This document shows positions 48,119-61,930 of a DNA stretch of 64,000 bases, in pieces. The stretch's first letter is position 1, and the number at the start of each line of letters is the position of its first letter. Source of the DNA: Anaerolineae bacterium (GTDB taxonomy: Bacteria; Chloroflexota; Anaerolineae; S140-20); the NCBI GenBank assembly GCA_027021705.1, contig JALUTT010000176.1:1-64000 (forward strand). The letters are read 5' to 3'. The notes under the pieces were generated by a model. It worked only from the letters and a program-made list of their open reading frames with translations, was not told the DNA's origin and ran no database searches. Position numbers and translations under genes: made by a program.

Positions 48119-50458
48119 ATGAAAGCCATATCCAAACTCTACGCGCTGACCGCCCTGATCCTGGTGCTCAGCGTCGTGCTGACGGCTTGCGGTGGTGGGG
48201 CGACCCCCACGAAAGCCCCTCAACCGACCAAGCCGCCGGCGGAGAAACCCACCAAAGCGCCGACCGAAGCACCAATGGAGAAGCCGACGGAGGCGCCGGC
48301 GAAGAGGGAGATCGGCAAGATCACCGTTGGTACCAACGCCGAGTACCCGCCCTTCGAGTTCGTGGACGAGAGCGGCAACATCGTCGGCTTCGACATTGAC
48401 CTGATGAAGGCCATTGCCGAGGCGGCGGGCTTCGAGGTCGAGTTCGTCAACACCCGCTGGGACGGCATCTTCGTCGCCCTGGCCTCCGGCGAATTCGACG
48501 CGGTCATCTCGGCGGCGACCATCACCGAGGAGCGCAAGCAGACCGTTGACTTCTCCGATCCCTACTTCAACGCCGGTCAGATCATCGCGGTCCGCGCCGA
48601 CAACACCGACATCAAGGGACCGGAGGACCTGGACGGCAAGGTGGTCGGTGTGCAGCAGGGCACCACGGGCGACATCTGGGTCACCGAGAACACCAAGGCC
48701 GAGGTCAAGCGCTATGATGAGATCACCCTCGCCTTCCAGGCCCTGGCCAACGGCGATGTGGACGCCGTGGTCAACGATGCGCCCACCTCTGCCGACATCA
48801 TCAAGGCCAACCCGGAGATGAACCTGAAGCTCGTGGGCGAGCCCTTCACCGAGGAACTCTACGGCATCGCCGTGCGCAAGGACTTCCCCGAGCTGCTGGA
48901 GGCCATCAACAAGGGATTGGCCGAGGTGAAGGCCAGCGGCAAGTACGACGAGATCTACAACAAGTGGTTCGGCCTGCCGGAGGTGGAGGAGAAGCCGGCC
49001 GAGGCGATGGCCGAGACCATCATCATCGGCACCACCGACAAGGTGACCGACCTTGACCCGGCCAACTCCTACGACTTCCACACCTGGGAGATCCATCACA
49101 ACACGATGGACACCCTGCTCCACTACATCCCCGGCACCACCGACCTGGAGCCCGGCCTGGCCAAGGACTTCCCCGAGGTGAGCGACGACGGGCTGGAGTA
49201 CACCTTCCGTCTCAAAGAAGGGCTCAAGTTCCCCGATGGCACCCCCTTCAACGCCGAAGCGGTGAAGTGGTCCATTGATCGGGTGATGGCCCTGGGCGGC
49301 GATCCCAACTGGCTGGTGACCAGCTTCGTGGACCGCGTCGAGGTGGTGGACGAGTACACCGTCAAGTTCGTCCTCAAGCAGCCGGTCAACTACTTCCCGC
49401 TGCTGGTGGCCACTCAGCCCTACGCCCCCGTCAGCCCCAACTGCTATCCCGAGGACCGGTTCGACTCGGACAGCACCTGCGGCGGCATCGGCCCCTACCT
49501 CATCACCAAGTGGGAGCGGGACGTGGAGCTGGACCTGACGGCCAACCCCGACTACCCCGGCCCGGCCCCCAAGACCAAGAACATCATCGTCAAGTACTTC
49601 GCCGATGCCACGACGATGCGGCTGGCGCTGGAGAACGGCGAGATTGACATCGCCACCAAGACCCTCAACCCCACCGACTACGAGGACCTGCGCCAGAACC
49701 CCGACTTCCAGGTGATCGAAGGGCCTGGTGCGCAGATCCGCTACCTCTGCTTCAACCACACCATTGCGCCCTTCGACAACCCGCTGGTCCGCCAGGCCAT
49801 CGCCTACGCGGTGGATCGGGACGCGGTGGCCAACAAGGCTTTCCTGGGCACCCACCAGCCGCTCTACTCGATGGTCCCGATGGGGATGTGGTCCCACATT
49901 GATGCCTTCCCCAAGCGCGACATCGAGAAGGCCAAGGAGTTGCTCCAGGAGGCCGGCTACAGCGCCGACAACCCGCTGGAGATTGACCTCTGGTGGACCC
50001 CCACCCACTACGGGGACACGGAGGCCGATGTGGCCGCCGTCATCAAGGAGGCCCTGGAGGAGACGGGGATGATCAAGGTCAACCTCCAGAGCGCCGAGTG
50101 GGCCACCTATGTGGACCAGTTCGGCTCGATGGGCTTCTACCTGCTGGGGTGGTACCCCGACTACCTGGATCCCGACAACTACACCACCCCCTTCGCCGAC
50201 TCCGAGGCCTCTAAGGACATCGGCATCTTCTACGCCAGCGAGGAGATGGATGCCTTGCTGAAGGCGGAGCAGGCGGCCACCGATCTGCGCGGTGCAGAGC
50301 GAGAGCAGATCTTCAAGGACATCCAGGAGCTGTGGGCCAAGGACATCCCCACCATCCCGCTGACCCAGGGGACGCTCCTGGTCGCGGCTCAGAAGGACGT
50401 GAAGGGCATCGTCCTCGACACCAATATGCTCTTCCACTACTTCCTGGTCTACAAGTAG
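48119..50458 (+). CDS. Fused substrate-binding lipoprotein: SBP family 3 (polar amino acid) + SBP family 5 (peptide)
   Basis: Lipobox LTAC; VGTNAEYPPFE...GFDIDL...G.YDEIYNKWF, then LDPA...YTFRLKEGLKFPDGTPFNAEAV...GIGPY...GWYPDYLDP. Confidence 0.93.
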   Translation: MKAISKLYALTALILVLSVVLTACGGGATPTKAPQPTKPPAEKPTKAPTEAPMEKPTEAPAKREIGKITVGTNAEYPPFEFVDESGNIVGFDIDLMKAIAEAAGFEVEFVNTRWDGIFVALASGEFDAVISAATITEERKQTVDFSDPYFNAGQIIAVRADNTDIKGPEDLDGKVVGVQQGTTGDIWVTENTKAEVKRYDEITLAFQALANGDVDAVVNDAPTSADIIKANPEMNLKLVGEPFTEELYGIAVRKDFPELLEAINKGLAEVKASGKYDEIYNKWFGLPEVEEKPAEAMAETIIIGTTDKVTDLDPANSYDFHTWEIHHNTMDTLLHYIPGTTDLEPGLAKDFPEVSDDGLEYTFRLKEGLKFPDGTPFNAEAVKWSIDRVMALGGDPNWLVTSFVDRVEVVDEYTVKFVLKQPVNYFPLLVATQPYAPVSPNCYPEDRFDSDSTCGGIGPYLITKWERDVELDLTANPDYPGPAPKTKNIIVKYFADATTMRLALENGEIDIATKTLNPTDYEDLRQNPDFQVIEGPGAQIRYLCFNHTIAPFDNPLVRQAIAYAVDRDAVANKAFLGTHQPLYSMVPMGMWSHIDAFPKRDIEKAKELLQEAGYSADNPLEIDLWWTPTHYGDTEADVAAVIKEALEETGMIKVNLQSAEWATYVDQFGSMGFYLLGWYPDYLDPDNYTTPFADSEASKDIGIFYASEEMDALLKAEQAATDLRGAEREQIFKDIQELWAKDIPTIPLTQGTLLVAAQKDVKGIVLDTNMLFHYFLVYK

Positions 50459-50596: not shown

Positions 50597-51622
50597 ATGG
50601 CTATGCGATCCCTACGTGTCTACATCATCACCCGCATCCTGCTGACCATCCCGATGCTCTTCATCCTGGTGACGCTGGTCTTCTTCATTATGCGGGTGCT
50701 CCCCGGCGACCCGGTGAAGGCCATCATCCGGCCCGGTGCACCCCAGGAGTACATTGACGAGATCCGTCACACATTGGGGCTGGACCGCCCCCTGCTGGTC
50801 CAGTACGTGGACTATCTGGGCGACCTGGTCCGCTTGGACCTGGGCACGACCTTGGCCCCGGTCCGAGGGCGATCGGTGCTCCAGGATTTGAAGGACAAGT
50901 TCCCGGCCACGTTGGAGCTCTCCTTGGCCGCCATCCTCGTCGCCAGCCTCGTCGGGATCTTCACGGGGGTGCAGTCGGCCTACCACCGCCGTTCCACCCT
51001 CGACTACGGCCTTCGCCTCTACTCCATCGTCATCTACACCATACCCGTCTTCTGGCTGGGGCTGATGCTTCAGTTGATCTTCAGCGTGAAGCTGGGCTGG
51101 CTGCCCGTCTACGGGCGAGTGGACACGCTGGACATGGCCCCGCGCACCATCACCGGCCTCTACGTGGTGGACAGCATCCTGACGCGGAACAAGGAGAGCC
51201 TGATCAACAGCCTCCAGCACCTGATCCTGCCGGCCCTCACCCTGGGACTCTACCTGTCGGGGGTCTTCACCCGCCTCACCCGCTCCAACATGCTGGATGT
51301 GCTGCGCCAGGACTTCATCACCGCCGCCCGAGCCCGAGGCATCGCCGAGCGGGCCGTCATCTACCGCCACGCCCTCAAGAACGCCTTCATCCCGGTGCTG
51401 ACGATGATGGGGCTCCAGTTCGCCCTGCTCCTGGCCGGGGCCGTGCTTACCGAGTCCACCTTCACCTGGCCGGGGTTGGGACGCCTCCTGGTGGAGCGGA
51501 TCGAGTATCGGGACTTCCCGACCGTCCAGGGGGCCGTCGTCTTCTTCGCCCTCCTGGTCTCCCTGGTGAGCCTGATCGTGGACATCATCTACGCCTATCT
51601 GGACCCCCGCATCCGTTACTGA
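50597..51622 (+). CDS. dppB: Peptide ABC permease DppB-like
   Basis: LPGDP, LGLDRPL..QY, FPATLEL, TAARARG, YLDPRIRY. Confidence 0.92.
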   Translation: MAMRSLRVYIITRILLTIPMLFILVTLVFFIMRVLPGDPVKAIIRPGAPQEYIDEIRHTLGLDRPLLVQYVDYLGDLVRLDLGTTLAPVRGRSVLQDLKDKFPATLELSLAAILVASLVGIFTGVQSAYHRRSTLDYGLRLYSIVIYTIPVFWLGLMLQLIFSVKLGWLPVYGRVDTLDMAPRTITGLYVVDSILTRNKESLINSLQHLILPALTLGLYLSGVFTRLTRSNMLDVLRQDFITAARARGIAERAVIYRHALKNAFIPVLTMMGLQFALLLAGAVLTESTFTWPGLGRLLVERIEYRDFPTVQGAVVFFALLVSLVSLIVDIIYAYLDPRIRY

Positions 51623-51659: not shown

Positions 51660-52838
51660 ATGGCTGAACAAACCCTCACCCTCGAACAACCCTGGGAAGA
51701 CGTTGGACTCCTGCGCCGCATCTGGCGAGGCCGTCGCTGGTACGGTGCGGAGTGGTACATCACCGTCGCCGGAGGGGTCCTCCTGACCCTCATCCTCCTG
51801 ATGACCTTCCTGGCCCCCGTCCTGGCCCCCTTTGATCCCATCAAGACGGTGGGAGGGCGCTTCACGCCCCCTGGCGGGGGAAAGCAATGGCTCATCGCCG
51901 AGGCCGAGAACGAGGCCATCCAGAGGCCGGAGGACCTGGCCGGCCGCAAGGTGGGCGTCCTGCCGGATACCACCGGAGAAGTACTGGCCGAAGAGCTGGG
52001 AGCCGAAGTCGTCTACTACCCCTCGATGCTCAAAGCCTTCCAGGGGCTGACGCGCCGTCGGCCAGAAGTGGAAGCGCTTATCGTGGAGCCCGAAGCTGCG
52101 GGCAACTTTATGAAGACCTACGGACGCTTCGTGCGTCAGGTCGGTCCGCCCTTCGGCCCCACCTTCGTCCTGGGAACCGACAACCTGGGGCGGGACATCC
52201 TCAGCCGGATCATCTGGGGAGCCCGCTCGGTCCTCCTGGTGGCCATCCTTTCCGCCCTCTTCTCCAGCGTCGTCGGCGTCCCCCTGGGGCTCCTCTCCGG
52301 CTTCTGGGGGGGCAAGCTGGACCGGGTGCTCTCCTTGGTGATGGACAGCATCTACTCCTTCCCCGGCCTCATCCTGGCCATCGCGATGGCAGCGATGCTG
52401 GGGCCGGGGGTGCTGAACATCGCCGTCGCCATCGCCGTCGTCTACATCCCCACCTACTTCCGCATCGTGCGCGGCCAGACCCTCTCGGTCAAAGAGGAGC
52501 TCTACGTTGAGGCGGCCCGCAGCCTGGGAGCCAGAGCCCGCACCATCCTGTGGCTCTACGTCTTCCCCAACGTCATCCCCTCCATCGTCGTCCTCTTCTC
52601 CCTCAACGTGGCCGACAGCATCCTGACCGAGGCGGGACTGAGCTTCCTGGGGTTGGGGCTTCCCCCGCCCACCCCCGACTGGGGGTTCGACCTGAACAAA
52701 GGGAAAGCCTACCTGCCCAACGGCTACTGGTGGCCCATCACCTTCCCCGGCCTGATGATCACCCTGGTCGCCCTAAGCTTCAGCCTGCTGGGCGAGGGGC
52801 TGGGCGAGATCCTGAACCCTCGGCTCACGGAGTCGTAA
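51660..52838 (+). CDS. dppC: Peptide ABC permease DppC-like with an inserted SBP3 lobe
   Basis: LAPFDP, LGTDNLGRDILSR, YVEAARSLGA, EAGLSFLGLG; ~90-aa insertion before LGTD. Confidence 0.92.
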   Translation: MAEQTLTLEQPWEDVGLLRRIWRGRRWYGAEWYITVAGGVLLTLILLMTFLAPVLAPFDPIKTVGGRFTPPGGGKQWLIAEAENEAIQRPEDLAGRKVGVLPDTTGEVLAEELGAEVVYYPSMLKAFQGLTRRRPEVEALIVEPEAAGNFMKTYGRFVRQVGPPFGPTFVLGTDNLGRDILSRIIWGARSVLLVAILSALFSSVVGVPLGLLSGFWGGKLDRVLSLVMDSIYSFPGLILAIAMAAMLGPGVLNIAVAIAVVYIPTYFRIVRGQTLSVKEELYVEAARSLGARARTILWLYVFPNVIPSIVVLFSLNVADSILTEAGLSFLGLGLPPPTPDWGFDLNKGKAYLPNGYWWPITFPGLMITLVALSFSLLGEGLGEILNPRLTES

Positions 52839-53005: not shown

Positions 53006-54667
53006 GTGTTCGCCTTCTACCCTGCTTATCTGCGGGAGCGCTTCACAAACCGCACCTATGAACTGGCTTTCCTGGAGCGGGTCGCCGAAGACCTGCGACG
53101 GGGACAACCCCGTCACGTGGCGATCTTTGGCCTGCGGCGCATCGGCAAGACGGTCTTGTGTCAGGAACAGGCATCGCGTTTGCTCTCCCAGGGAGACCTC
53201 GCTCCCGTCTACCTGGACCTGGAGGAACTCTGTACAGCGCCGGAGATCTTCGCCCAACGCTACATTGGTCTGACCTGCTTCTGGGTTCTGACCGGAGCCA
53301 AGGGGCCCATTGACCCTTATCTCACAGTGGAAGGCCTGCTGGAGACCCAGGCGGTCGAGGTTCCCTTAGTCGCCCGGACGGCCGGGAGCATCACCCAGGC
53401 GCTCAGCCGCAGCCGGCCCGACTACGCCGCCCTCCTCAAGCTGGCCTTCGACTTTCCCGACCACCTGGCTCAGGCCGTTGGCCGCCCCCTGATCTGCTTT
53501 CTCGACGAGTTCCCCGAGCTGTCCAGCCTGAGCAACTTTCCCGGCGTGGGAGATCCCCTCCAGCACTTCCGTGCTGCGCTGCAGCGGCAATCCTATGTGA
53601 GCTATGTCATCACCGGCTCGGCCATCACGGTGATGGAACGGCTTATCCGCCATCACGAGTCTCCCCTGTTCCTCCAATTCCGCACCCTGGAACTGCGGCC
53701 TTTCACCGAGGAAGATACCAAGGCTTTGTTGGAGAAGCTGATCGGCCCGCTGGCCCCGGACGCCCAGGCAGCGGTTCACCGCTACACCTTCGGCCATCCT
53801 TTCTACATCACGGTGCTGGCCGAGCGGCTGCGAGAGCTGGTACCCGAGGCCCCCGAAGGGGTGAACCGCTCCCACGTGCAGCATGCCTTCCTGCTGGAGA
53901 CCCTCTCGCGCCAGGGCCAGATCTACAGTTACTGCCGCTATCTGTATGATATCTCTCTGCAGAAGGCCCGGGGTTACGGGCTCCTGAAGGCGCTCCTCCA
54001 AGTATTGGCCGAGGAAGAGGGGCTCACCCTCTCCGAAACAGCCCGCCGGCTGCGACGGCAAGCCTCGGCAACCCGGGAGTACTTACGCTGGTTGATGGAG
54101 GTGGACCTGATTATCGAGGAGGACGGGCGATACTACTACCGGGATCCTGTGCTCCGCTTCTGGGTGGCCTACACCAGCCGGGGGATTGAGGTTGACCTCT
54201 TTCCGCGACGGGAGGAACTGGAAGGACTGATCGCCGACTTGCAGGAGCGTTTCCAGCGGGTCTCCACGCAGTTGGGACGGGCCAAGGAGAGCGAGGTGCG
54301 GGAACTGCTGCGGAGGATGGCCGGACAGACCGTGGATGGGGCACTTTTGGGCCGGGCCGGCCCTCTGCACATCCCTAAGTTTGTCCGTGTCGAGCCCTAT
54401 CGCTCCTCAGATGGCCGGATTGAGATAGACGCCTTGGCCGAGAACGATGAGCGGTGGATCGTTGAGGTAAAGTGGCGACGGAGGCGGGTGGGACAAAAGG
54501 AACTGAAACGCCTCTTGGAACTGGCAGAGCAGTTTCAGGCCCGGCCCTGGTGTATCTCCCAGGCCGGCTTCACTCCAGAAGCCATCGCTTACGCTGAGCA
54601 TCACGGCATCCTGCTCAGTGATGGCCACGATCTGGCTGCCTTAGAACGGGCCGTCTTGGCCAGATAG
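53006..54667 (+). CDS. Archaeal-type ATPase with wHTH and C-terminal PD-(D/E)XK (DUF234/Mrr-like) domain
   Basis: FTNRTYEL, GLRRIGKT, LDEFP, GHPFY, EIDAL...VEVKW...SQAGFT; own promoter TTGCCC-N17-TATACT at 52931-52959. Confidence 0.85.
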   Translation: MFAFYPAYLRERFTNRTYELAFLERVAEDLRRGQPRHVAIFGLRRIGKTVLCQEQASRLLSQGDLAPVYLDLEELCTAPEIFAQRYIGLTCFWVLTGAKGPIDPYLTVEGLLETQAVEVPLVARTAGSITQALSRSRPDYAALLKLAFDFPDHLAQAVGRPLICFLDEFPELSSLSNFPGVGDPLQHFRAALQRQSYVSYVITGSAITVMERLIRHHESPLFLQFRTLELRPFTEEDTKALLEKLIGPLAPDAQAAVHRYTFGHPFYITVLAERLRELVPEAPEGVNRSHVQHAFLLETLSRQGQIYSYCRYLYDISLQKARGYGLLKALLQVLAEEEGLTLSETARRLRRQASATREYLRWLMEVDLIIEEDGRYYYRDPVLRFWVAYTSRGIEVDLFPRREELEGLIADLQERFQRVSTQLGRAKESEVRELLRRMAGQTVDGALLGRAGPLHIPKFVRVEPYRSSDGRIEIDALAENDERWIVEVKWRRRRVGQKELKRLLELAEQFQARPWCISQAGFTPEAIAYAEHHGILLSDGHDLAALERAVLAR

Positions 54668-54734: not shown

Positions 54735-55715
<981 letters not shown>

Positions 55716-55718
55716 GCT

Positions 55719-56711
55719 ATGCAGAACGGTTACTTGGTCGAAGTTCAGAGCCTGAAGAAGTGGTTCCCCGTTCAGCAGAGCTTCCTCGAAAACCTCCTCT
55801 CCCGGCGGAAAGAGTTCGTGCGGGCCGTGGATGGGGTGAGCTTCGCCATCCGGCGGGGGGAGGTCTTCGGGTTGGCCGGCGAGAGTGGTAGCGGCAAGAC
55901 GACGACGGGGCGGCTGATCCTCCGCCTCATCGAGCCCACCGAGGGCCAGATCCGCTTCGACGGCATCGAGATCACCTCCCTTCCGCCGGAGGAGATGCGC
56001 CGGCTACGCCGTCGGATGCAGGTCATCTTCCAGGACCCCTTCGCCTCGCTCAACCCCCGGATGAAGATCGGCGACGCCATCGGCCACGGGCTGGTGATCC
56101 ACGGCCTGGCCCAGGGAGAGGCGAAGCGGGAGGCCGTGCTGGAGATGATGGAAAAGGTGGGGCTAACGCCGGCGGCCATCCTCTACGAGAAGTACCCCCA
56201 CCAACTCTCCGGCGGCCAGCGCCAGCGGGCCGTCATCGCCCGGGCTCTGGTCACCCATCCCGACCTGGTCGTGGCCGATGAGCCCATCGCGATGGCCGAC
56301 GTCTCGGTCCGGGCGATGCTCCTGGAGCTGATGCGCCAGCTCAAGGAGGAGTTTCACCTCACCTACCTCTTCATCACCCACGACCTGGCCACAGCCAAGT
56401 ACATCTGCGACCGCATCGCGGTGATGTACCTGGGCAAGATTGTCGAGGTGGGGTCCCTGGAACAAGTCTACCGCAGCCCCGTGCACCCCTACACCGAAGC
56501 GCTCCTGGCGGCGGTCCCCGTCCCCGACCCCCGGGCGCGGAGGACGACGCCGATCCCCAAAGGCGAGATCCCCAACCCCATCAACCCACCCCCGGGCTGC
56601 CGCTTCCATCCCCGCTGTCCTCTGGCCGAGCCGGTCTGCAGCCAAGAAGAGCCCACCTTGATTGAGGTCGAAGCGGGCCACGCCGTCGCCTGCCACGTCC
56701 GCACCCGCTGA
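55719..56711 (+). CDS. dppF: Peptide ABC ATPase DppF-like
   Basis: [36 protein letters not shown]...VACH. Confidence 0.93.
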
Positions 56712-56786
56712 CCTGCCTTTGACAGATTGGGGATTCCGAGGTATAAAGGAAGCCATCGGCGGGCCAAAGCGATCAGGAGGACAAGG

Positions 56787-57197
56787 ATGGAAAGCGAGGA
56801 AAAGGAAGCACTGCGGGAGATGATCCGGGAGACCGTCTACGAGGTCCTGGAGCCCTTCGTCGCCCAGATGAGCCGCGACTACGAGGAGACCCGCCGGTGG
56901 ATGCGCTCGATGGAAGAGCGGATGAGCTCGATGGAGGCACGGATAGAGCGCATCGAGGCCCGGCTGACCAGCCTGGAGCGGCGCGTCTCCCGCCTCGAAG
57001 ACGAGGTGTGGGAGATCAAGACGACGCTCCGCTCCTTGGAACAGCTCCTCGTCGAGCGAGGAGTCATCCAGCCTGAAGCGATCCCCCACGAACGCTGGGC
57101 CACCTTCCAGGAGCTCCGCCAATTGGAACAACGGGTCACTCAGTTGGAGATCGCCGTCTTCCATCAGGCCGATGGCCAGGCCGAAGAAGAGGCCTGA
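56787..57197 (+). CDS. Hypothetical coiled-coil protein
   Basis: AGGAGG RBS, heptad repeats, own promoter TTGACA-N17-TATAAA at 56719-56747. Confidence 0.75.
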
Positions 57198-57278: not shown

Positions 57279-58133
57279 ATGACCGTTCGAGAGGGAACCC
57301 GCCCCAAGTCCGTCGGAGGCGCGCTGGTAGATTGGCTGGCCGAAGTCCCCTGGTGGGTGGTCATCATCATTGTGCTGATCACCCTCTTCGTGGGCAGAAT
57401 TCTCACCAGCCCCCAGGAACGGGAGCTCTACTGGAAAGCCCTCCAGTTCGTCACCGCCTGCCCTCAGGGGCAGGAGACCTGCGCCGTGTGGGACCGCATC
57501 GGGGTGATGCTCACCCTCAAGGCGACGGTGGTGGGCTATGCGCTGGCCCTGGTGCTGGGCCTGATCGGGGGGCTCTTCCGGGTCTCCAAGAACCCCGTCA
57601 CCTACGCCATCTCCACCCTCTACGTTGAGGTGGTGCGGGGCATCCCCCTGCTGGTTATCATTATGTACGCCGGTTACGTCATCACGCCGGCCCTACGCGA
57701 TGCCACCAACCAGCAAGTGGACCTACGGGGCTTCCCCTCGGCGGTGCTGGGGCTGGCCTTTGGCTACGGAGCCTACCTGGCCGAGGTCTTCCGGGCCGGC
57801 ATTGAGTCCATCCCCAAGGGCCAGATGGAAGCCGCCCGCTCCTTGGGGATGAGCTACCCCCAGGCGATGCGCTACGTCATCCTCCCGCAGGCGATCCGGG
57901 TTATCCTGCCTCCTCTGGGCAACAACTTCATCGCCATGCTCAAGGACTCCTCCCTCATCTCCGTCATCGCCCTGCCCGACCTGCTCCAGCAGGGACGGCT
58001 CTTCGTCTCCCGCACCTTTCGGGCCTTCGAAGGGTACAACACGGTGGCCCTGCTCTACCTCCTGATGACCTTGATCTTGTCCATCATCGTCCGCCTGATC
58101 GAGCGGAAGTCGGCGTTGCCAGGGCGCTTGTGA
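57279..58133 (+). CDS. Polar amino acid ABC permease (HisM/GlnP family)
   Basis: YVEVVRGIPLLV, AYLAEVFRAGIESIPKGQMEAARSLG, LKDSSL. Confidence 0.95.
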   Translation: MTVREGTRPKSVGGALVDWLAEVPWWVVIIIVLITLFVGRILTSPQERELYWKALQFVTACPQGQETCAVWDRIGVMLTLKATVVGYALALVLGLIGGLFRVSKNPVTYAISTLYVEVVRGIPLLVIIMYAGYVITPALRDATNQQVDLRGFPSAVLGLAFGYGAYLAEVFRAGIESIPKGQMEAARSLGMSYPQAMRYVILPQAIRVILPPLGNNFIAMLKDSSLISVIALPDLLQQGRLFVSRTFRAFEGYNTVALLYLLMTLILSIIVRLIERKSALPGRL

Positions 58134-58151: not shown

Positions 58152-58889
<738 letters not shown>

Positions 58890-59838: not shown

Positions 59839-59958
59839 AGGTGCCGGGTCTCCCCCTGGTGTGAGGAACATCACCCGGAAGAGGCGAGGGTTGCCACTTG
59901 CCTTCGGCTCCTCGGCCCGGTAGGCTGGAGGAGGAGAAACGGGAAAGGATTGGGGAAG

Positions 59959-60945
59959 ATGCTTGAGCTACGGGTGCTCTCCGGTGAGGAGGTCCGCCAG
60001 GCGCTCCCGATGGCGGAGGCCATTGAGGCGATGAAAACGGCCTACGCCCAACTCTCGACCGGTCGGGCCACGGTGCCCCTGCGCACCCCCATCGAGGTAC
60101 CAGCTCACCACGGGCTGGTCCTTTTTATGCCCGCTTACCTGGCCGGCGACGACCAGATGGCGATCAAGATCGTCTCCGTCTTCTCCGACAACCCGGCCCG
60201 GGGACTCCCCCTCATCCACGCCCTCGTCGTCGTGGTGGACCCGACGACGGGCCGACCGGCAGCGGTGATGGACGGCACCGTCTTGACCGCCCTGCGCACA
60301 GGGGCGGCCTCGGGGGCGGCCACGGACCTGCTGGCCCGCCCCGACAGCCACGTGGCCGCCGTCTTCGGGGCCGGCGTCCAAGGGCGCACCCAACTGGAAG
60401 CCGTCTGCGCCGTGCGCCCCATCGAGCAAGCCTGGATCTACGATCCCAAGCCTCCGGCAGCCCGGGCCTACGCCGAGGAGATGGGCGCTCGCCTGGGCAT
60501 CCCGGTGCGGCCGGCCGCCACCCCCGCCGAGGCGGTGCGGGAAGCCGACGTGATCTGCACGGCGACGACCTCCGCCACGCCGGTCTTCGATGACGCCGAC
60601 CTGAAGCCGGGTGTCCACATCAACGCCATCGGTGCCTACACGCCCCAGATGCAGGAAATCCCGGCGGAGACGGTCGTCCGAGCCCGCGTGGTGGTGGACC
60701 ATCGGCCCGCCGCCCTGGCCGAGGCCGGTGACCTGATCATCCCCTTGCAGCGCGGGCTGATCACCGAGGACCACCTGGAGGCCGAGATCGGCGAGATCGT
60801 TGCCGGCCTCAAACCCGGTCGGACGACGCCGGAGGAGATCACCCTCTTCAAGTCGGTGGGGGTCGCGGTGCAAGACGTGGCCGCCGCTGCTCAGGTCCTG
60901 GCGGCCGCCGAGCGCCGGGGGCTGGGGAGCGTCGTCGCCCTCTGA
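59959..60945 (+). CDS. Ornithine cyclodeaminase / mu-crystallin family protein
   Basis: LFMPAY, LTALRTGAASG, GAGVQG, HINAIGA, LFKSVGVAVQD. Confidence 0.92.
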   Translation: MLELRVLSGEEVRQALPMAEAIEAMKTAYAQLSTGRATVPLRTPIEVPAHHGLVLFMPAYLAGDDQMAIKIVSVFSDNPARGLPLIHALVVVVDPTTGRPAAVMDGTVLTALRTGAASGAATDLLARPDSHVAAVFGAGVQGRTQLEAVCAVRPIEQAWIYDPKPPAARAYAEEMGARLGIPVRPAATPAEAVREADVICTATTSATPVFDDADLKPGVHINAIGAYTPQMQEIPAETVVRARVVVDHRPAALAEAGDLIIPLQRGLITEDHLEAEIGEIVAGLKPGRTTPEEITLFKSVGVAVQDVAAAAQVLAAAERRGLGSVVAL

Positions 60946-60988
60946 ACCCGCAGCCCCCCTCCGCATACAGCGCATCAGGAGGTCGGAT

Positions 60989-61930
60989 ATGTTGCGACCG
61001 CTCTTTCTCTATCTGTCGAGGAATGACCTGGCCCGGCGGTTCGTGATGGGGTTTCCGCTGGCGCGGCGGGCCTCCCTCCGCTTCGTCGCCGGCGAGACGC
61101 TGGACGACGCGATGGCCGCCGTCCGCGCCTTTCAGGCCCGGGGCATCCACGCCACGATGGACCACCTGGGGGAGAACGTCTACAACGAGGCCGACACCCG
61201 GCGGGCAGCCGACGAGTACGTGGAGCTCCTGGAGCGGATCCACCAGGAGGGAGGCTGGAACGGGCACATCCCCCACTGCTCCGTCAAGCTCACCCAGTTG
61301 GGGCTGGACATCGGCCCGGATCTGGCCGAGGAGAACCTGGAGCGGGTGGTAGCGAAGGCCCAGGAGATCGGCACCTTTGTCCGCATTGATATGGAAAGCT
61401 CCGACTACACGGACGCGACCTTGGAGATCTACCGCCGCTTGCGGTCGCGTTACGACAACCTGGGGGTCGTCATCCAAGCCTACCTCTACCGCAGCGAGCG
61501 GGATGTGCGGCAGCTCATCGAGGAAGGCATCGCCAACATCCGGCTGTGCAAAGGGGCCTACAAAGAGCCCCCCACCATCGCCTTCCCCAAGAAGGCCGAC
61601 GTGAACACCAACTTCGTCAACCTGATGGAACTGCTGCTCAGCCGCGAGGCGCTGGAGAAGGGGGCCTACCTGGCCGTCGCCACCCACGACGAGAAGATGA
61701 TCGCCGCCACCCGTGCCTGGGAGGCCGCCCACCAGGTGCCCCGCGACCGCTTCGAGTTCCAGATGTTGCACGGCATCCGGCGGGACCTGCAGGAGAAACT
61801 GGCCGCCGAAGGGTACACCGTGCGCATCTACATCCCCTATGGCACCGAGTGGTATCCCTACTTTATGCGCCGCCTGGCCGAGCGGCCGGCCAACGTCTGG
61901 TTCATCGTCAGCAACCTCTTCCGCCGCTGA
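60989..61930 (+). CDS. Monofunctional proline dehydrogenase
   Basis: RFVAGE, SVKLTQLG, RIDME, RLCKGAY, ATHD, YFMRRLAERPAN. Confidence 0.95.
   Translation: MLRPLFLYLSRNDLARRFVMGFPLARRASLRFVAGETLDDAMAAVRAFQARGIHATMDHLGENVYNEADTRRAADEYVELLERIHQEGGWNGHIPHCSVKLTQLGLDIGPDLAEENLERVVAKAQEIGTFVRIDMESSDYTDATLEIYRRLRSRYDNLGVVIQAYLYRSERDVRQLIEEGIANIRLCKGAYKEPPTIAFPKKADVNTNFVNLMELLLSREALEKGAYLAVATHDEKMIAATRAWEAAHQVPRDRFEFQMLHGIRRDLQEKLAAEGYTVRIYIPYGTEWYPYFMRRLAERPANVWFIVSNLFRR

Follow-up and report, generated by a model that had tools for sequence, protein, structure and literature searches.

A DppC-type permease of Anaerolineae carries lobe II of a family-3 binding protein in the loop between its first two transmembrane helices

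What does one lobe of a family-3 binding protein do inside the permease of a peptide transporter? The question is raised by a stretch of 64,000 nucleotides from an Anaerolineae bacterium (assembly GCA_027021705.1, contig JALUTT010000176.1, positions 1 to 64,000), which is referred to below as the window. One gene of an ATP-binding cassette (ABC) importer operon in the window (51660..52838, + strand) encodes a DppC-type permease of 392 residues, and an initial annotation, made from the letters alone, had pointed out that about 90 residues of this protein resemble lobe II of the family-3 binding-protein domain (SBP3) encoded in the same operon. The analysis presented here confirmed that the permease carries a folded family-3 lobe II in a loop that probably faces outward and that this feature is real, conserved, and apparently undescribed.

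Apart from this insert, the host protein is an ordinary DppC. The Pfam family BPD_transp_1 (PF00528) covers residues 206-390 (E = 1.8e-31, 109.7 bits against a cut-off of 26.4), and OppC_N (PF12911) matches residues 36-62 (E = 7.5e-5) with 23.0 bits, slightly below its cut-off of 23.9 bits. The full-length AlphaFold2 model, with a predicted local distance difference test (pLDDT) score of 85.5, has Escherichia coli DppC as its best Foldseek match in the PDB (8z1w_B, E = 1.5e-15, TM-score of 0.78 on the target), followed by chains C of Mycobacterium tuberculosis DppABCD and OppABCD. The best-matching solved DppC and OppC chains are 273-289 residues long and have no such extra domain. The remaining operon set is also present, i.e., a DppB, two ATPases with oligo_HPY, and a family-5 binding protein, in a gene order that matches related loci.

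The relationship of the insert to family-3 binding proteins was seen at the levels of sequence, profile, and predicted fold. In a single BLASTP comparison of DppC with the 779-residue binding protein of the operon, DppC residues 76-165 aligned with residues 154-243 of the binding protein (48578..48847, +), with 31 of 92 positions identical (34%, E = 4e-9). A profile of 22 inserts was aligned by hhalign with a profile of 14 SBP3 domains over 92 columns (probability 99.3%, E = 4e-20), and insert columns 19-110 paired with columns 93-186 of the 241 SBP3 columns, which comprise lobe II and are bounded by its two hinge strands. A profile made from inserts only retrieved 4163 proteins at E <= 0.001 among 1.84 billion, and the nine top hits that were scanned with Pfam consisted of seven SBP_bac_3 proteins and two members of the DppC family itself. 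One 343-residue SBP_bac_3 protein (P0134), approximately 100 residues longer than usual, is matched by the lobe II profile in three stretches and may contain a duplicated lobe II.

AlphaFold2 predicts the insert alone (pLDDT of 87.5) to be an alpha/beta domain of five strands and four helices. Foldseek found 181 matches to this model in the PDB at E <= 0.001, with 4zv1 as the best (E = 3.2e-8), and the matches listed were all family-3 binding proteins or glutamate-receptor ligand-binding cores, which have the same fold. VIA-align, which is independent of Foldseek and covered 48,161 chains, placed domain 2 of the Thermotoga arginine-binding protein TmArgBP (6gpm_A) at rank 2 (Z = 14.5, root mean square deviation = 1.5 Å, 90 of 92 residues); the Z values of the insert against lobe II folds were 15.0 and 14.5. 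The initial description of a lone SBP3-type lobe II, extending from hinge to hinge, is borne out by BLASTP, hhalign, and VIA-align, and the hhalign and Foldseek searches both return the insert as SBP3-like. Lobe I, with the conserved residues T74, T76, and R79, is absent from the insert, and the two-lobed, hinged architecture that encloses a ligand is thus not present.

A Pfam scan of a 117-residue insert piece, with E up to 10, gave no SBP_bac_3 (PF00497) call and returned only NMT1 (E = 0.03). Because the SBP_bac_3 model misses the insert and Pfam calls only BPD_transp_1 on such proteins, they are annotated as plain permeases and current annotation overlooks the inserted lobe; the homology was therefore shown by pairwise, profile-profile, and fold comparison. 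The boundaries were taken from close insert-less relatives, which read PF-x-x-P-N-x-x-F-x-MGTDN where the window reads PPGGG...PPFGPTFVLGTDN, so that the insertion point is between PF-x-x-P and x-F-x-[LM]-GTDN. The alignment with these relatives therefore limits the inserted piece to approximately residues 72-166 (51873..52157, +), and the coordinates first proposed, 51882-52157, are correct within three codons.

The insert is located between TM1 (about residues 30-55) and the LGTDNLGRD motif, in the TM1-TM2 loop of DppC, where the initial annotation had placed it, and most probably faces outward, given the known topology of DppC and the positively charged N-terminus. When the insert was modeled alone, its flanks were poor (pLDDT of 58, 73, and 63). 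In the full-length model, the insert and both connecting segments reach a pLDDT of at least 92 in every 10-residue block from residue 51 to residue 180; the connectors are therefore as confident as the lobe itself, which suggests that the lobe is held in a fixed mounting on the permease.

The insert is not peculiar to the window. The best 120 relatives of the DppC protein in a collection of 5.8 billion proteins are 368-417 residues long, one fragment excepted, and the insert is present with an intact frame in all 72 homologues that were aligned. The named records that bear it are all assigned to Anaerolineae, Anaerolineales, Ardenticatenales, Promineifilaceae, or "Chloroflexota". We collected 106 distinct DppC cores of the clade from species genomes and metagenomes (loci are numbered with the prefix L), of which 65 have an insert and 41 do not. 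Three of the 65 inserts (L007:9133-9549, L015:9169-9573, and L020:3796-4200) are longer, at approximately 110 residues, and occupy exactly the same loop position in distant DppC proteins (43-50% identical), whose operons have a plain family-5 binding-protein domain (SBP5). They matched neither the SBP3 domains tested nor any Pfam family, and we accordingly do not claim them as the same domain. A search of 401 genomes of the phylum with a 159-residue N-terminal piece gave matches in four genomes, including the window's own; two of the matches were on TM1 only and one, in an open frame of 317 residues, was on the insert part only (30% identity). Because the first-look filter is lossy at such divergence, this tally was not used as a measure of rarity.

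The ratio of nonsynonymous to synonymous substitution rates (dN/dS) of the insert is 0.08-0.39 in all 25 computable pairs, compared with 0.03-0.10 for the membrane core. The range was 0.19-0.39 in the first set (9 pairs). In a further set, the 10 pairs whose operons lack SBP3 gave 0.08-0.37, and the 6 pairs whose operons have it gave 0.11-0.39. The insert is functional sequence under purifying selection that is three- to eightfold more relaxed than that on the core. The difference is also seen in the mean column entropy over 72 sequences, which is 2.13 bits in the insert and 0.67 bits in the core, and no insert position besides G135 is conserved at 90% or more.

The source of the lobe appears to lie close by. 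In the 5.19-Mb genome to which the window belongs, the insert matches just one other place, the SBP3 domain of its own operon; none of the genome's three further proteins with an SBP3 domain gives a match. The SBP3 domains fused to SBP5 in related operons form two lineages, type A, to which that of the window belongs, and type B. Type A gives the highest score for each of the 19 close inserts (16-55 bits), compared with at most 13 bits for type B and at most 16 bits for the other SBP3 proteins of the genome, and this preference holds even where the operon's own lipoprotein carries type B. The insert is thus closer to the operon's own SBP3 lineage than to any other SBP3 tested, in line with the initial alignment by eye; the comparison covered the SBP3 domains at hand rather than a broad sample. 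Judging from these sequences, the simplest and most likely history would be one duplication of lobe II of a type A SBP3 into the neighboring dppC.

The SBP3 domain itself is part of a composite binding lipoprotein of 779 residues (48119..50458, +), in which SBP_bac_3 covers residues 68-285 (E = 1e-48) and SBP_bac_5 covers residues 343-698 (E = 8.2e-94). A signal peptide with the lipobox LTAC, as read from the translation, is followed by a linker rich in Pro, Thr, Ala, and Lys, the SBP3 domain, a second linker of approximately 15 residues, and the SBP5 domain. The presence of an SBP3 domain in a Dpp operon is explained by a second translocator, overlooked in the initial annotation, which consists of a permease of the polar-amino-acid type (57279..58133, +; 284 residues; BPD_transp_1) and an ATPase (58152..58889, +; 245 residues; ABC_tran, E = 3.6e-40) that is conserved as its partner in other loci. 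The presence or absence of SBP3 agrees with that of the second translocator in 47 of the 47 distinct operons that could be scored for both. Wherever SBP3 is present and the contig is long enough, orthologues of the second permease and ATPase follow DppF, and plain SBP5 operons have neither. SBP3 is fused to SBP5 in the window, L001, L093, L095, L098, L101, L108, L126, and others, and is a separate gene just upstream of SBP5 in L096, L105, and L195. No SBP3 gene of its own was found near the second permease of the window. Since the second translocator has no binding protein of its own and the concordance is complete, the SBP3 domain of the composite lipoprotein most likely serves this translocator, and so the operon comprises two translocators and one lipoprotein with a binding domain for each. 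In the type A SBP3 domain, T74, T76, R79, and the TT pair at 122-123, which presumably bind the amino-acid moiety, are nearly invariant. Genes for ornithine cyclodeaminase and proline dehydrogenase are found after the second translocator (59950-61930, +), which hints at ornithine, arginine, or proline as candidate substrates of the SBP3 branch.

Several known systems resemble the inserted lobe in part. In the E. coli DppABCDF structure, both DppB and DppC are capped by DppA, and a scoop motif in the periplasmic TM1-TM2 region of DppB is described as reaching into DppA (PMC12136057). The loop with the insert is comparable, since the scoop motif is also in the TM1-TM2 loop of a subunit of the same family, the partner of DppC, and contacts the docked binding protein; however, the scoop consists of approximately 30 residues, which form two short helices and a loop entering the DppA cleft, whereas the DppC insert is a whole globular domain. 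In the type I importer MalFGK2-E of E. coli, a periplasmic loop of the permease MalF likewise contains an extra folded domain. This domain, MalF-P2, is reported to bind one lobe of the binding protein MalE with a dissociation constant of 7-22 uM and to aid recruitment (PMC6906923). MalF-P2 is an Ig-like domain of approximately 180 residues between TM3 and TM4, whereas the DppC insert is an alpha/beta lobe of approximately 95 residues between TM1 and TM2, is derived from a binding protein, and has only predicted binding. In GlnPQ, with its tandem SBD1-SBD2, and in OpuA, binding-protein sequence of the family-3 type is covalently joined to the membrane subunit of an importer on the outside (10.1101/2020.12.19.423572; PMC11065425). 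Those domains are described as complete, two-lobed, ligand-binding, and terminal, feeding their own translocator, whereas DppC has lobe II only, within a loop, and itself belongs to a different transporter family, that of the peptide-type (Dpp) permeases.

Domain 2 of TmArgBP (6gpm) is the same continuous lobe II, solved alone with 92 residues, and its structure indicates that lobe II folds stably in isolation. The isolated domain is reported to be cooperative and very stable, melting at 102.6 °C (PMC11328109). It is, however, a product of laboratory dissection, whereas the DppC insert is a natural, selected lobe within another protein. Accessory outward domains of permeases as such are already known; what is apparently undescribed is a translocator with half of another family's binding protein incorporated in it. 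No description of a natural single binding-protein lobe in the permease loop of another transporter family was found in open-access papers and bioRxiv, which agrees with the initial remark that no example was known, and nothing relevant on an SBP3-SBP5 fusion was found in the same sources.

Of the roles that we considered for the insert, the one ranked first, with a probability of roughly 0.4, is that of an outward-facing platform for the docking or retention of a binding lipoprotein, comparable to MalF-P2. In this reading the insert is an autonomously folding copy of lobe II in the TM1-TM2 loop of DppC, a loop related by pseudo-symmetry to the part of DppB in which the scoop motif contacts the docked binding protein. 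It may act, at the outside of the translocator, as a protein-docking platform that captures or retains the lipid-anchored binding lipoprotein beside the Dpp translocator, as MalF-P2 holds MalE, and it would not itself be a ligand-binding site. For operons whose lipoprotein includes an SBP3 domain, such as that of the window, the predicted contact would be lobe I of SBP3. The fast evolution of the insert surface is as expected for an interface that tracks a fast-evolving partner.

A complex prediction for the SBP3 domain and the insert gave scores of 0.66, 0.66, and 0.65, against 0.00 for the best of three controls. These values pass the mark of the tool, which 116 of 157 solved complexes and 2 of 215 mismatched pairs reach and which is rough here, with our own alignments supplied. 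The runs share at least 96% of their contacts, and the pLDDT of the partner is at least 80. The predicted interface lies between residues 74, 82-88, and 110-113 of the binding protein and residues 122-124, 127-128, 149-150, and 153-157 of DppC; i.e., a hairpin of lobe I and the end of the following strand pack against two helices of the insert. The model thus supports binding of the insert to lobe I of SBP3.

Several observations weigh against a docking platform, particularly one made for SBP3. The insert is a homologue of lobe II, and lobe I naturally packs on lobe II, so the good score of the complex may stem from this likeness. On the insert, the predicted contact residues vary more than the average position does (mean entropy of 2.68 versus 2.13 bits). 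The operon survey points in the same direction. When SBP3 and the second translocator were taken together as a module and scored among the 106 distinct cores (30 with the state unknown), the raw table appeared associated, with both insert and module in 19 operons, the insert only in 25, the module only in 2, and neither in 30. SBP3 is accordingly encoded in cis in only 19 of the 44 scorable operons with an insert (21 more could not be scored), and two loci with the fused SBP3-SBP5 and the second translocator, L126 and L113=L217, have an insert-less DppC. A FastTree tree of the membrane core requires no fewer than 10 changes of state for the module and no fewer than 4 for the insert, and of the 8 independent pairs with a difference in the module, an average of 6.4 show no change in the insert. 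In kinship-corrected contrasts, 2 pairs differ in the insert and 8 in the module, with a median p of 1 in the sign test, which cannot reach significance because too few independent contrasts are left after kinship.

The FastTree tree had 128 rows, of which 105 were distinct, and the outcome was alike on a quick IQ-TREE tree with 57 rows; many deep branches are unsupported in both. The rows excluded were L088, L106, and L134 (duplicates of L001, L004, and L005), L103 and L112 (3' end cut), L139 (too short), L156 (the window's own contig), and metagenome loci whose core fell short of 190 residues.

Strict co-occurrence of the insert and SBP3 at the level of the operon is therefore rejected, given the 25 insert-bearing operons without the module. 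The initial annotation had proposed a docking module for the fused binding protein: the complex model (0.66 versus 0.00) speaks for this part of the idea and the low share of insert-bearing operons with the module (19 of 44) against it. It had also held that an insert occurring independently of the fused protein would tell against the proposal, and such independence is seen in one direction (25 of 44 insert-bearing operons lack the module) and not in the other (19 of 21 distinct module-bearing operons have the insert). Since the insert is equally constrained in module-less operons, its role is not limited to the fused SBP3 and needs no SBP3 encoded alongside. The data speak neither for nor against the domain swap and the amino-acid-sensing gate that the initial annotation had offered as alternatives. 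A dock specifically for the fused SBP3 is weakened by these results; the SBP5 domain is the partner that is present in all operons. The pattern fits an insert that was born in a module-bearing operon and was retained after the module had been lost or relocated.

A rescue of the co-occurrence at the level of the genome decided nothing: the module was found elsewhere in the genome of L094, and no such find was made in four others (those of L100, L004, L089, and L107), where only ordinary SBP3 genes, 37-41% identical, were found. The L094 genome, which has the insert and a plain SBP5 in its Dpp operon, contains an unlinked operon with a tandem SBP3-SBP3 protein, an amino-acid-type permease, and an ATPase. 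This tandem protein, encoded at L154:8859-10418 (- strand; = G401:C26), has 519 residues, and each of its halves is 66-67% identical to the SBP3 domain of the window.

Other permeases in related loci are decorated as well. DppB often has a large insert of its own after TM1 (L002:1716-4004, L107:1635-3923, L099:267-2582, and L095:6580-8916). The L002 protein, with 762 residues, has an SH3_3 match (E = 8.4e-6, 26.3 bits against a cut-off of 27) and repeats with a weak, sub-threshold Reg_prop match (E = 0.0011). The DppB at L006:2064-3434 (456 residues) has approximately 115 extra residues that Pfam does not name, and many DppB genes encode 416-508 residues. The presence of other protein-binding modules in the equivalent DppB loop suggests that permease loops serve as adaptor sites. 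The second permease is enlarged to 722-765 residues in L095:12765-14987, L001:12302-14470, L099:6061-8358, and L101:13008-15227; that of L095, which was scanned with Pfam, has an N-terminal WD40 beta-propeller after its first transmembrane helix, and the other three have similar N-terminal sequences. A WD40 propeller on the outer side of a bacterial ABC permease is unusual. The second permease has 453 residues in L108:12157-13518 and L005:3128-4489, and the scanned L108 protein has a sub-threshold SH3_3 match.

Such decorations bear on the alternative that survives best, although we regard it as unlikely, namely that the insert is an adaptor or stabilizer unrelated to binding proteins, which contacts another envelope component or a DppB loop, or stabilizes the outer face of the translocator. 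The insert would then be one among many domain decorations of Chloroflexota ABC permeases. The SH3_3 domain and Reg_prop-like repeats added to DppB, and the WD40 propeller or SH3_3 added to the second permease, are in line with this alternative, as is the purifying selection that keeps the insert in the 25 operons that lack SBP3. In solved Dpp structures, however, this loop of DppC adjoins the docking site of the binding protein, and the complex model with SBP3 passed, both of which favor a docking platform over an unrelated adaptor.

It is rather improbable that the insert forms a half-site or gate, in which the lone lobe, hinged by two strands, would swing across the entrance of the translocation pathway and transiently hold a free amino acid or the charged ends of the peptide-like substrate; in a variant of this alternative, a composite site would be formed with lobe I of a docked SBP3 domain. 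The alternative draws on four of the best-kept surface positions of the insert, N103 (61 of 72 sequences), S/T104 (59 of 72), A/G106 (67 of 72), and D/E143 (56 of 72), at which the window reads D-T-T-G and E143. The positions from N103 to A/G106 and D/E143 align with the "GTT" loop of SBP3 and with the conserved acidic residue after strand 4, which we take to be ligand-contacting positions in family-3 proteins. The connection to the permease shares the two-strand geometry of a binding-protein hinge, and the contacts predicted on SBP3 in the complex model adjoin the cleft mouth of lobe I. However, N, S, T, and D are also usual N-cap residues of helices, so that structure alone may account for the conservation of the cleft positions. 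The insert lacks lobe I and with it the conserved arginine (R79 in the numbering of the SBP3 domain), G135 is the only insert position with 90% conservation, and the predicted contacts exclude positions 103-105 and 143.

Still less probable, in our estimate, is a working third lobe, in which lobe I of SBP3, or an opened SBP5, and the DppC lobe would form a transient composite site in trans at the mouth of the translocation pathway and receive there the amino acid or the charged termini. If this were true, one fused lipoprotein would couple or cross-regulate the uptake of amino acids and peptides via the two translocators of one operon.

A bridge to the second translocator is very improbable. 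The insert would mimic a lobe of the binding protein, dock on the polar-amino-acid-type permease, and couple the two translocators for the fused lipoprotein, which would agree with its occurrence in 19 of 21 module-bearing operons and with an interdomain linker of only about 15 residues. The 25 insert-bearing operons without a second translocator and the high variability of the outer N-terminal part of the second permease argue against such a bridge. That the insert is a functionless remnant of a partial gene duplication, for which its highly variable surface and its loss or absence in several related clades could be adduced, can practically be dismissed in view of the low dN/dS (0.08-0.39) in every one of the 25 computable pairs, the frame that is intact in 72 of 72 homologues, and the confidently predicted fold.

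The DppB-type permease of the window (50597..51622, +; BPD_transp_1 and BPD_transp_1_N) is of ordinary length with 341 residues, and the DppD-type (54735..55715, +) and DppF-type (55719..56711, +) ATPases both have ABC_tran and oligo_HPY. Between dppC and dppD, an open reading frame of 553 residues (53006-54667, +) encodes an archaeal-type ATPase_2 domain, a weak winged-helix-like match, and a C-terminal Mrr_cat restriction-endonuclease domain. It looks like an insertion into the operon, because DppD directly follows DppC in the related loci examined, and the inserted gene is possibly related to defence. A small coiled-coil frame of 156 residues (56727-57197, +), with only weak SlyX- and FlaC-like matches, is located between dppF and the second permease.

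Unusual binding proteins were also seen in related loci. An 853-residue protein (L120:1071-3632) is another fusion, with a Bmp/PnrA-like domain (residues 55-333) followed by SBP5 (418-774), and the binding proteins of L161, L203, and L226, with 846-849 residues, have an unidentified N-terminal extension of approximately 360 residues. In the family-5 binding protein at L007:5916-7799 the halves are swapped, with query residues 260-480 matching residues 131-354 and query residues 3-253 matching residues 369-621, which could be a circular permutation or an assembly problem.

Extra domains on the permeases of ABC importers are rare and informative, and MalF-P2 has shaped the view of how binding proteins are recruited. 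The DppC insert would be a natural case of half a binding protein in a translocator of another family, selected across many Anaerolineae lineages. It is also a natural experiment on whether a single binding-protein lobe can function alone, which bears on the long-standing idea of a single-lobe ancestor. The fused SBP3-SBP5 lipoprotein and the second translocator provide a compact system for the question of whether two importers share one binding lipoprotein, and the insert offers a new handle on how lipid-anchored binding proteins stay at their translocators in bacteria without a periplasm.

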